Below, in pieces: positions 3,001-3,496 of a stretch of DNA of 3,496 nucleotides (position 1 is the first letter of the stretch; the number at the start of each line of letters is the position of its first letter). Source of the DNA: Escherichia coli (GTDB taxonomy: Bacteria > Pseudomonadota > Gammaproteobacteria > Enterobacterales > Enterobacteriaceae); the NCBI RefSeq assembly GCF_003334385.1, contig NZ_QOWN01000092.1. One strand, 5' to 3'. A program made the position numbers.

Positions 3001-3496
3001 CGCCACTGCTGCCCTGGGGGGGTACAGTGATAAACAGGCTGTTGCCGTGGGTGTTGGTTACCGTTTCAACGAGCAGACCGCAGCGAAAGCGGGTATTGCA
3101 GCGAGTGATGGCGATGTGTCCTACAACATGGGCGTTAACTTCGAGTTTTAATTGCTGAAAGTGACATGAAGTATGGCGGCAGGCGCAGGACTCTGGTCTG
3201 CCGTTTTTCATGGGGCATAAAAAACAGGAAGGTGCTGCGATGAAGGTGATTCTGGCTACCAGGAATCGCTATCTGGAGTATGGTCTGCAGGCGTTACTGA
3301 AGGAACACAGTGTGATACTGGCGAGGGAGTTTTTCCTGCCGGAGAACCGCCGTTATATCCCGGACTTTGACGAATCCTGGCTGATAATCAGTGATGGCCT
3401 GCTGGGCAGGCTGATGCGCTGTATGTTCCAGGGGCGTCATTTTCTGCAACTGGATGCGGAGTTGCTCCGTGATGGTGAGCAGATAAGTGATGCCAT

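Follow-up and report, generated by a model that had tools for sequence, protein, structure and literature searches.

An adhesin-linked gene at the end of Escherichia coli Eib prophages probably encodes a TosE-type LuxR regulator

The window, that is, the whole stretch of 3,496 nucleotides of the Escherichia coli contig NZ_QOWN01000092.1 that was analyzed here, corresponds to the right-hand end of a lambdoid prophage. It begins with the collagen-repeat C-terminal part of a tail fibre (positions 16-549), followed by ORF-191, a DUF4376 gene (569-1144), and by the gene of a 508-aa trimeric autotransporter adhesin (1625-3151, plus strand), which was assigned to the YadA-like Eib family from the YadA-like/Eib annotation in related records. 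The last feature on the plus strand is the 5' part of a second gene, hereafter ORF-156 (3240-3496), the subject of this work.

Eib adhesins bind immunoglobulins, provide serum resistance and produce chain-like adherence, and they are found in both commensal and Shiga-toxin-producing E. coli. The adhesin of the window is 60% identical to EibC, with the divergence located mostly in the N-terminal head (residues about 25-180) and the stalk and with a nearly identical membrane anchor, and may be a distinct Eib/Cla-type variant. The closest phage record to the window was PhiR12_3 from ECOR13, with 95.7% identity over 69% of the 3.5 kb of the window. Upstream of the adhesin gene there is a 480-nt non-coding stretch (1145-1624), which is probably the eib regulatory region; its equivalent part in locus L001 has a GC content of about 33%. 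A hairpin located just past ORF-191 (1155-1174) scores as a terminator on both strands, and the promoter scan of the region gave only a weak promoter-like match (1597-1626). A search upstream of eib for a conserved inverted repeat resembling a LuxR box detected only short palindromes of 9-10 nt. The expression of Eib was described as high in static and low in shaken cultures, with no regulator named (PMC4352079, PMC5450701).

Between the adhesin gene and ORF-156 we found an intrinsic-terminator-like hairpin followed by TTTTT (3175-3210, plus strand), supported by RNA folding, by the terminator scan and by the stem_loop features of the P-Eib GenBank records. It consists of a G+C-rich hairpin of 13 pairs at 3175-3205 with a T-run at 3204-3208, and the RNA fold of positions 3152-3245 reached -30.4 kcal/mol, with a z of -2.5. 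The promoter scan detected no sigma-70-like site on the plus strand of this gap, in such a way that transcription of ORF-156 needs either read-through or antitermination, and the hairpin could stop most of it. By sequence inspection, a Shine-Dalgarno-like AGGAAGG lies at 3226-3232 on the plus strand, 7 nt before the ATG (3240-3242), which is itself 88 nt past the stop of the adhesin gene. Direct reading from this ATG gives 85 open codons (3240-3494), plus 2 nt of codon 86, up to the window end, with the translation MKVILATRNRYLEYGLQALLKEHSV...GEQISDA, and the start is also backed by the M-K-V-I-L N-terminus, conserved among homologues. The good ribosome binding site and the 85 visible residues, in a frame open to the window end, that a preliminary description of this DNA had noted are thus exactly as found here.

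As the copy of the window is visible only to base 3496, the full-length protein was taken from near-identical loci. Dozens of complete E. coli genomes carry the DNA of ORF-156 with 97-99% nucleotide identity, in every case adjacent to a YadA-like gene, and where the locus is near-identical the ORF encodes 156 aa; the complete ORF of the window would be expected to end in ...KNGLYGVSVRRLVGA. An early end after a few more codons was seen in no relative. The gene corresponds to orf-156A, orf-156C, orf-156D and orf-156E of the P-EibA, P-EibC, P-EibD and P-EibE prophage records (strain ECOR-9), which were deposited in 2000 with no function given, and RefSeq labels it as a hypothetical protein. Among divergent family members (47-70% protein identity) the dN/dS ratio was 0.18-0.27, and an alignment of 25 full-length members contained 31 invariant positions. 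Judged from this pattern of substitution, in which synonymous changes largely exceed non-synonymous ones, and from the invariant positions, ORF-156 is a real gene under purifying selection. Pfam gave no match to ORF-156 even at an E-value of 10, nor did NCBIfam, while in PHROGs the matches were to families of unknown function, apart from a weak one to a transcriptional regulator (E 0.087). Our literature searches on ORF-156 and on Eib regulation found no functional study of ORF-156.

The surroundings of the gene on its 3' side differ among loci. In some of them ORF-156 is followed by orf-60 and then by eaa, which encodes an S6/SPATE autotransporter, and in others by dinI, near the prophage end; orf-60 is present where the eaa SPATE gene comes next and absent where dinI comes next. 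It has 60 codons and lies just past the window end (8611-8793 of locus L001, equivalent to 3043-3225 of locus L002 in P-EibC). Its ATG overlaps the stop of ORF-156 (ATGA), which suggests translational coupling, and its 60-aa product is a predicted membrane protein with a basic N-terminus and one hydrophobic helix (MCFMLFVWLGGVVALFTAAAVLLQ).

The C-terminal half of ORF-156 (RPLTMSEMVVMFGYVYRQSRPCRLASEMGINTKTVNTFLYTGMAKNGL) contains an LT.SE...LA.EMGI..KTV motif at residues about 100-153. This segment fits the LuxR/GerE pattern (LT.RE..VL......s..eIA..L.iS.KTV..H...i..KLg), with a few positions drifted, namely F/L for the usual His after KTV and KNG for KLG, a drift that is sufficient for the protein to escape detection by Pfam. 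When a narrow profile of the family was compared with all PDB sequences, VqmA and GerE were the best matches, with E-values of about 0.1-0.2, and a profile that included more distant members matched GerE (1fse) with an E-value of 0.0014 over residues 108-149, followed by VraR and VqmA. The GerE HMM matched relatives of ORF-156 and left ORF-156 itself unmatched, so that its membership at the sequence level is transitive. Three relatives (P0075, P0079 and P0080) carry precomputed PF00196 matches, and weak matches to the NCBIfam models of BglJ, NarP, EvgA and EcpR were found among the relatives, those of BglJ, NarP and EvgA over the helix-turn-helix (HTH).

The AF2 model of ORF-156, built from the family alignment, reached a pLDDT of 91.5 and a pTM of 0.87. 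It shows a four-stranded α/β domain (residues 1-90) connected to a four-helix C-terminal domain of LuxR/GerE type, with helices at residues 102-113, 118-125, 129-142 and 150-153, the last of which (the dimerisation helix) is short, a feature that counts against the explanation favored below. In a Foldseek search against the PDB, ranks 1-40 were all response regulators of NarL/FixJ type (FixJ, StyR, RcsB, DesR, LiaR, EvgA, VpsT, VraR), with E-values from 1e-3 to 1e-1 and probabilities up to 0.98; the low TM-scores are what a flexible hinge between two domains would lead one to expect. The relatives of ORF-156 in AFDB50 carry LuxR family annotation. Taken together, profile, fold and transitive homology support the assignment of ORF-156 to the LuxR family, with the direct PDB and Foldseek E-values being modest. 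The preliminary description had proposed a LuxR-family regulator and predicted a C-terminal HTH of this type; both were borne out, the HTH by the motif, the AF2 model and the GerE profile match of the full-length protein, and the family by profile, fold and the homology to TosE described below.

Two further matches were rejected. A single-sequence phmmer search against the PDB had streptococcal protein G as its top match, at the chance level of E 0.59, and a match to β2-microglobulin was also at chance level. The protein G similarity (GVWTYDDATKTFTVTEMV) covers residues 82-108 of ORF-156 (GVWTYNSAARPLTMSEMV), which form the interdomain linker in the model; it is curious beside an immunoglobulin-binding adhesin, yet statistically insignificant.

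The part of ORF-156 visible in the window comprises most of the N-terminal domain, a receiver-like (βα)4 arrangement with β1 at residues 2-6, α1 at 10-19, β2 at 24-27, β3 at 47-51, followed by an invariant D52, α3 at 53-61, β4 at 67-72 and an α4 that begins at 79. The domain has the receiver (CheY-like) fold, and its best structural match was DosR, whose receiver domain is said, in the paper on the structure 3c3w, to be (βα)4. The active-site equivalences were assigned by secondary-structure position, that is, without residue-level superposition. On this basis, D52 at the end of β3 is the only member of the phospho-acceptor set that is kept, being invariant across the family; a conserved T7-R8-N9 stands in place of the acidic pair after β1, position 72 (the β4 Thr/Ser) varies, and β5 is lacking together with its Lys. 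The degenerate receiver anticipated from the 85 visible residues is thereby supported. No histidine kinase gene was found within the prophage end that bears ORF-156. A LytS/LytTR pair, which represents another class of regulators, is present in loci L011-13 past dinI, in the neighbouring stretch. With only one active-site Asp left and no kinase gene nearby, the modelled protein is probably phosphorylation-independent, with a small possibility that D52 is phosphorylated or binds another ligand.

Compared with NarL/FixJ regulators such as FixJ, RcsB, EvgA and DosR, with which it shares the overall architecture and which provide the best whole-protein structural matches, ORF-156 is about 50 residues shorter, lacks β5/α5 as well as the acidic pair, the Thr/Ser and the Lys, has no cognate kinase gene, and its sequence similarity lies under Pfam detection. 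It resembles RcsA, GadE, DctR/YhiF, EcpR/MatA and BglJ in having a short atypical N-terminal domain in front of a LuxR HTH, and EcpR appeared at rank 42 among its AFDB fold matches. Nevertheless, hhalign comparisons with RcsA, GadE, DctR and EcpR from K-12 or CFT073 gave probabilities of 2-7%, in the HTH register only, and pointed to no specific subfamily. For the family profile A3 against K-12 RcsA, a comparison limited by its single-sequence template, the probability was 4.5% and the E-value 0.009, again in the HTH register only, and GadE, DctR and EcpR proved just as distant. The proposal of the preliminary description that the N-terminus resembles an RcsA-like receiver thus is supported as regards the LuxR family and the receiver-like fold and not supported as regards RcsA, for which these sequence comparisons leave an analogy rather than membership. 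HyxR/HyxA (the same as AutR/AutA, encoded beside UpaB) were also considered as relatives and discarded, being proteins of 253-264 aa that no search with ORF-156 matched.

An exhaustive phmmer search over 1.84 billion representative proteins produced only 32 clusters, nearly all of them from E. coli. Three very large repeat/WD40 proteins in this result (P0057, P0062 and P0065) were repeat-driven false positives. The clusters included a 160-aa protein of strain CFT073 (WP_001024300.1, E 1.3e-19), which BLASTP aligned with ORF-156 at 32% identity over 151/156 residues with one gap (E 2e-30). In CFT073 its gene is preceded by those of a PapB-like regulator, TolC, an ABC transporter, HlyD and an RTX adhesin and is followed by a second HTH gene. 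This order is that of the tosRCBDAEF operon, and a gene located directly after tosA identifies the 160-aa protein as TosE. The description of TosE and TosF as conserved members of the LuxR family that suppress motility by an unknown mechanism goes back to the title of a 2014 paper by Engstrom et al., which PMC5956150, PMC7545054 and PMC10392849 cite and summarise. According to PMC5956150 and PMC7545054, tosA is controlled by TosR, with TosE tied to motility instead.

TosE and ORF-156 are collinear full-length homologues of similar size, with the same two-domain layout and with genes placed directly 3' of an adhesin gene. They differ in the upstream gene and its setting, which for tosE is that of an RTX adhesin secreted by a type I system in a chromosomal island and for ORF-156 that of a YadA-like trimeric autotransporter in a lambdoid prophage. 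Moreover, TosE has retained the canonical His after KTV and can be detected by Pfam (Sigma70_r4_2, 6.8e-6; GerE, 1.1e-3), neither of which applies to ORF-156. In addition, TosE is paired with TosF, and a TosF-like gene is found next to the regulator in CFT073 and in loci L015-17, whereas none was detected in the Eib prophages, where orf-60 or dinI comes next. The motility phenotype belongs to TosE/TosF only, and the lack of a TosF-like gene in the Eib prophages means that it may not transfer to ORF-156. These data support that ORF-156 is a TosE-type LuxR regulator. Some of its distant relatives are already labelled as LuxR family and TosE itself is published; the ORF-156 subgroup has so far no annotation of its own.

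In at least seven different loci, distributed over prophages, chromosomal islands and plasmids, the family gene comes immediately 3' of the gene of a YadA-like or giant RTX adhesin; placement on the same strand was seen in L001, L002, L011-13, L014, L015-17, L007, L018/L022, L004/5 and L023. YadA-like proteins are encoded upstream in the Eib prophages (69-100% identity to ORF-156, with an Eib adhesin), in the conjugative plasmid p100 (66%) and, as a YadA-like anchor, at the P0046 locus (47%). At the chromosomal P0074 locus (44%), the regulator gene is preceded by those of a giant RTX protein and then a 326-aa YadA-like protein and is followed by a TosF-like gene. The upstream gene encodes the RTX adhesin TosA in the tos operon (TosE, 32%) and a giant RTX protein in the P0075-type IncF plasmids (32-34%), and at the P0050 locus (38%) RTX fragments precede the regulator gene. 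One family member, P0031 (164 aa, 55% identity), is an exception, with no adhesin gene upstream. It is present in about 390 assembly blocks (L008, 7001-7495), alone in an AT-rich island beside hpaBC, and downstream of it there are DcuA/DcuB fragments and a PerC-like gene. The repeated association of the family with adhesins that use two unrelated types of secretion is our main argument for a role of the regulator that is tied to adhesin expression.

Other observations were made on these loci. In the chromosomal and IncF loci L015 (1-9116) and L022 (1-6570), genes of giant RTX-type proteins with more than 3,500 aa precede those of TosE-like regulators, and these loci look like uncharacterised tos-like adhesin modules; L015-17 also encode a YadA-like protein of 326-352 aa, a 68-aa ORF and a TosF-like gene. 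In the Stx phage 933W, L0123 (L024, 3944-4225) is a decayed copy of the regulator, a 93-aa ORF whose N-terminus has been replaced and which lacks the HTH, located just after the tail-fibre genes L0121/L0122, and a second, out-of-frame piece matches the C-terminus of the regulator. The same remnant is present in VT2-Sakai and in more than 100 records of Stx phages (short-tailed Stx-converting phages).

How far the homology to TosE also informs on targets has to be weighed against a local role. ORF-156 could control the cargo of the prophage rather than motility genes, either eib, through the AT-rich region upstream of it, or orf-60/eaa. This main rival is unlikely on balance, but deserves consideration, since all the Eib prophages examined show a tight linkage of ORF-156 to eib, Eib expression is regulated and PMC4352079 and PMC5450701 name no regulator for it, the 480-nt region upstream of eib is of low GC (33%), and HyxR/AutR-AutA, which are LuxR-type and encoded beside an adhesin, control the neighbouring autotransporter UpaB (PMC4844996). 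On the other side, the sequence upstream of eib offers short palindromes and no repeat resembling a LuxR box, and TosE, the nearest homologue that has been characterised, is tied to motility, with tosA under TosR. Furthermore, ORF-156 is kept in loci without eaa, so that eaa is not an obligate target.

Three other explanations concern the protein itself. The decay seen in the Stx phages raises the question of whether ORF-156 is a non-functional remnant that has travelled with the adhesin: copies with truncations, fusions and frameshifts are common, as in 933W and Sakai, which have only the 93-aa L0123, partial proteins are numerous among the homologues listed, and the LuxR motif has drifted in its His and KLG positions. 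The full-length copies argue otherwise, with their dN/dS of 0.18-0.27, 31 invariant positions that include the HTH core, a fold predicted with high confidence, a good Shine-Dalgarno sequence and a conserved start, and decay is improbable for them. Even less probable is an orphan NarL/FixJ response regulator, phosphorylated at D52 by a kinase of the host or by acetyl phosphate. The invariance of D52 at the end of β3 and the fact that all of the best full-length structural matches are phosphorylatable would agree with it; the replacement of the acidic pair by T7-R8-N9, the non-conserved Thr/Ser of β4, the absence of the β5 Lys and of an adjacent kinase gene in the prophage end speak against it. 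Finally, that the C-terminus is a module like region 4 of sigma-70 that interacts with RNA polymerase or with an anti-sigma factor, instead of a domain that binds operators, is hardly credible. Its basis is the better Pfam match of TosE to Sigma70_r4_2 than to GerE, the annotation of some relatives as sigma-70 region 4 domain-containing and the ECF sigma region 4 structures at Foldseek ranks 41-48, but region 4 of sigma factors and the LuxR HTH are structurally related and such cross-matches are expected, ORF-156 has no sigma region 2, all of the top 40 Foldseek matches have the two-domain NarL/FixJ architecture, and the best PDB sequence match is GerE.

We therefore favor, with a probability of roughly 0.6, that ORF-156 is a cytoplasmic transcription factor of the TosE family, of 156 residues, in which a receiver-like domain without phospho-acceptor machinery is joined to a LuxR/GerE HTH, and which serves in adhesin-coupled control of host genes. 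As its gene lacks a promoter-like site and the terminator has only five Ts, transcription would probably start at the eib promoter and read through in part, or belong to the Q-antiterminated late transcription of the prophage, so that production of the regulator would accompany that of the adhesin. The protein would bind DNA through the recognition helix K130-T131-V132...Y137, would probably need no phosphorylation to act, either as a dimer or together with a partner, and would alter the expression of host genes. By analogy, the best precedent for this last step is the suppression of flagellar motility by TosE/TosF, which in the case of ORF-156 would coordinate attachment with the loss of swimming. 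Circuits of this kind exist in PapX and FocX of uropathogenic E. coli and MrpJ of Proteus, which are small regulators encoded at the 3' end of adhesin loci that decrease flagellar expression when the adhesin is made. PapX is MarR-like and MrpJ has an Xre-type HTH; to our knowledge these families are unrelated to ORF-156 and show no homology to it, so the likeness would lie only in the proposed circuit.

A broader and more tentative reading, which we consider possible and somewhat doubtful, is that proteins of ORF-156 type form a distinct unnamed class of phosphorylation-independent regulators, with a (βα)4 receiver and a LuxR domain, which move together with genes of trimeric autotransporter or giant RTX adhesins on prophages, plasmids and islands. 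If this is true, a temperate phage would bring into the cell not only an adhesin but also a regulator that rewires the host, for instance by turning off flagella or other adhesins, and this regulator would act whenever the adhesin or the late operon of the phage is transcribed, which would represent lysogenic conversion at the level of host regulation.

For a specialist, the assignment of ORF-156 is incremental and unsurprising. Its use lies in that a TosE-type annotation is transferable to hundreds of genes of E. coli prophages, plasmids and islands, and in that two unrelated types of secretion are represented among the adhesins whose genes precede regulators like TosE. ORF-156 is accordingly a candidate to couple the expression of an adhesin to motility or other programmes of the host.
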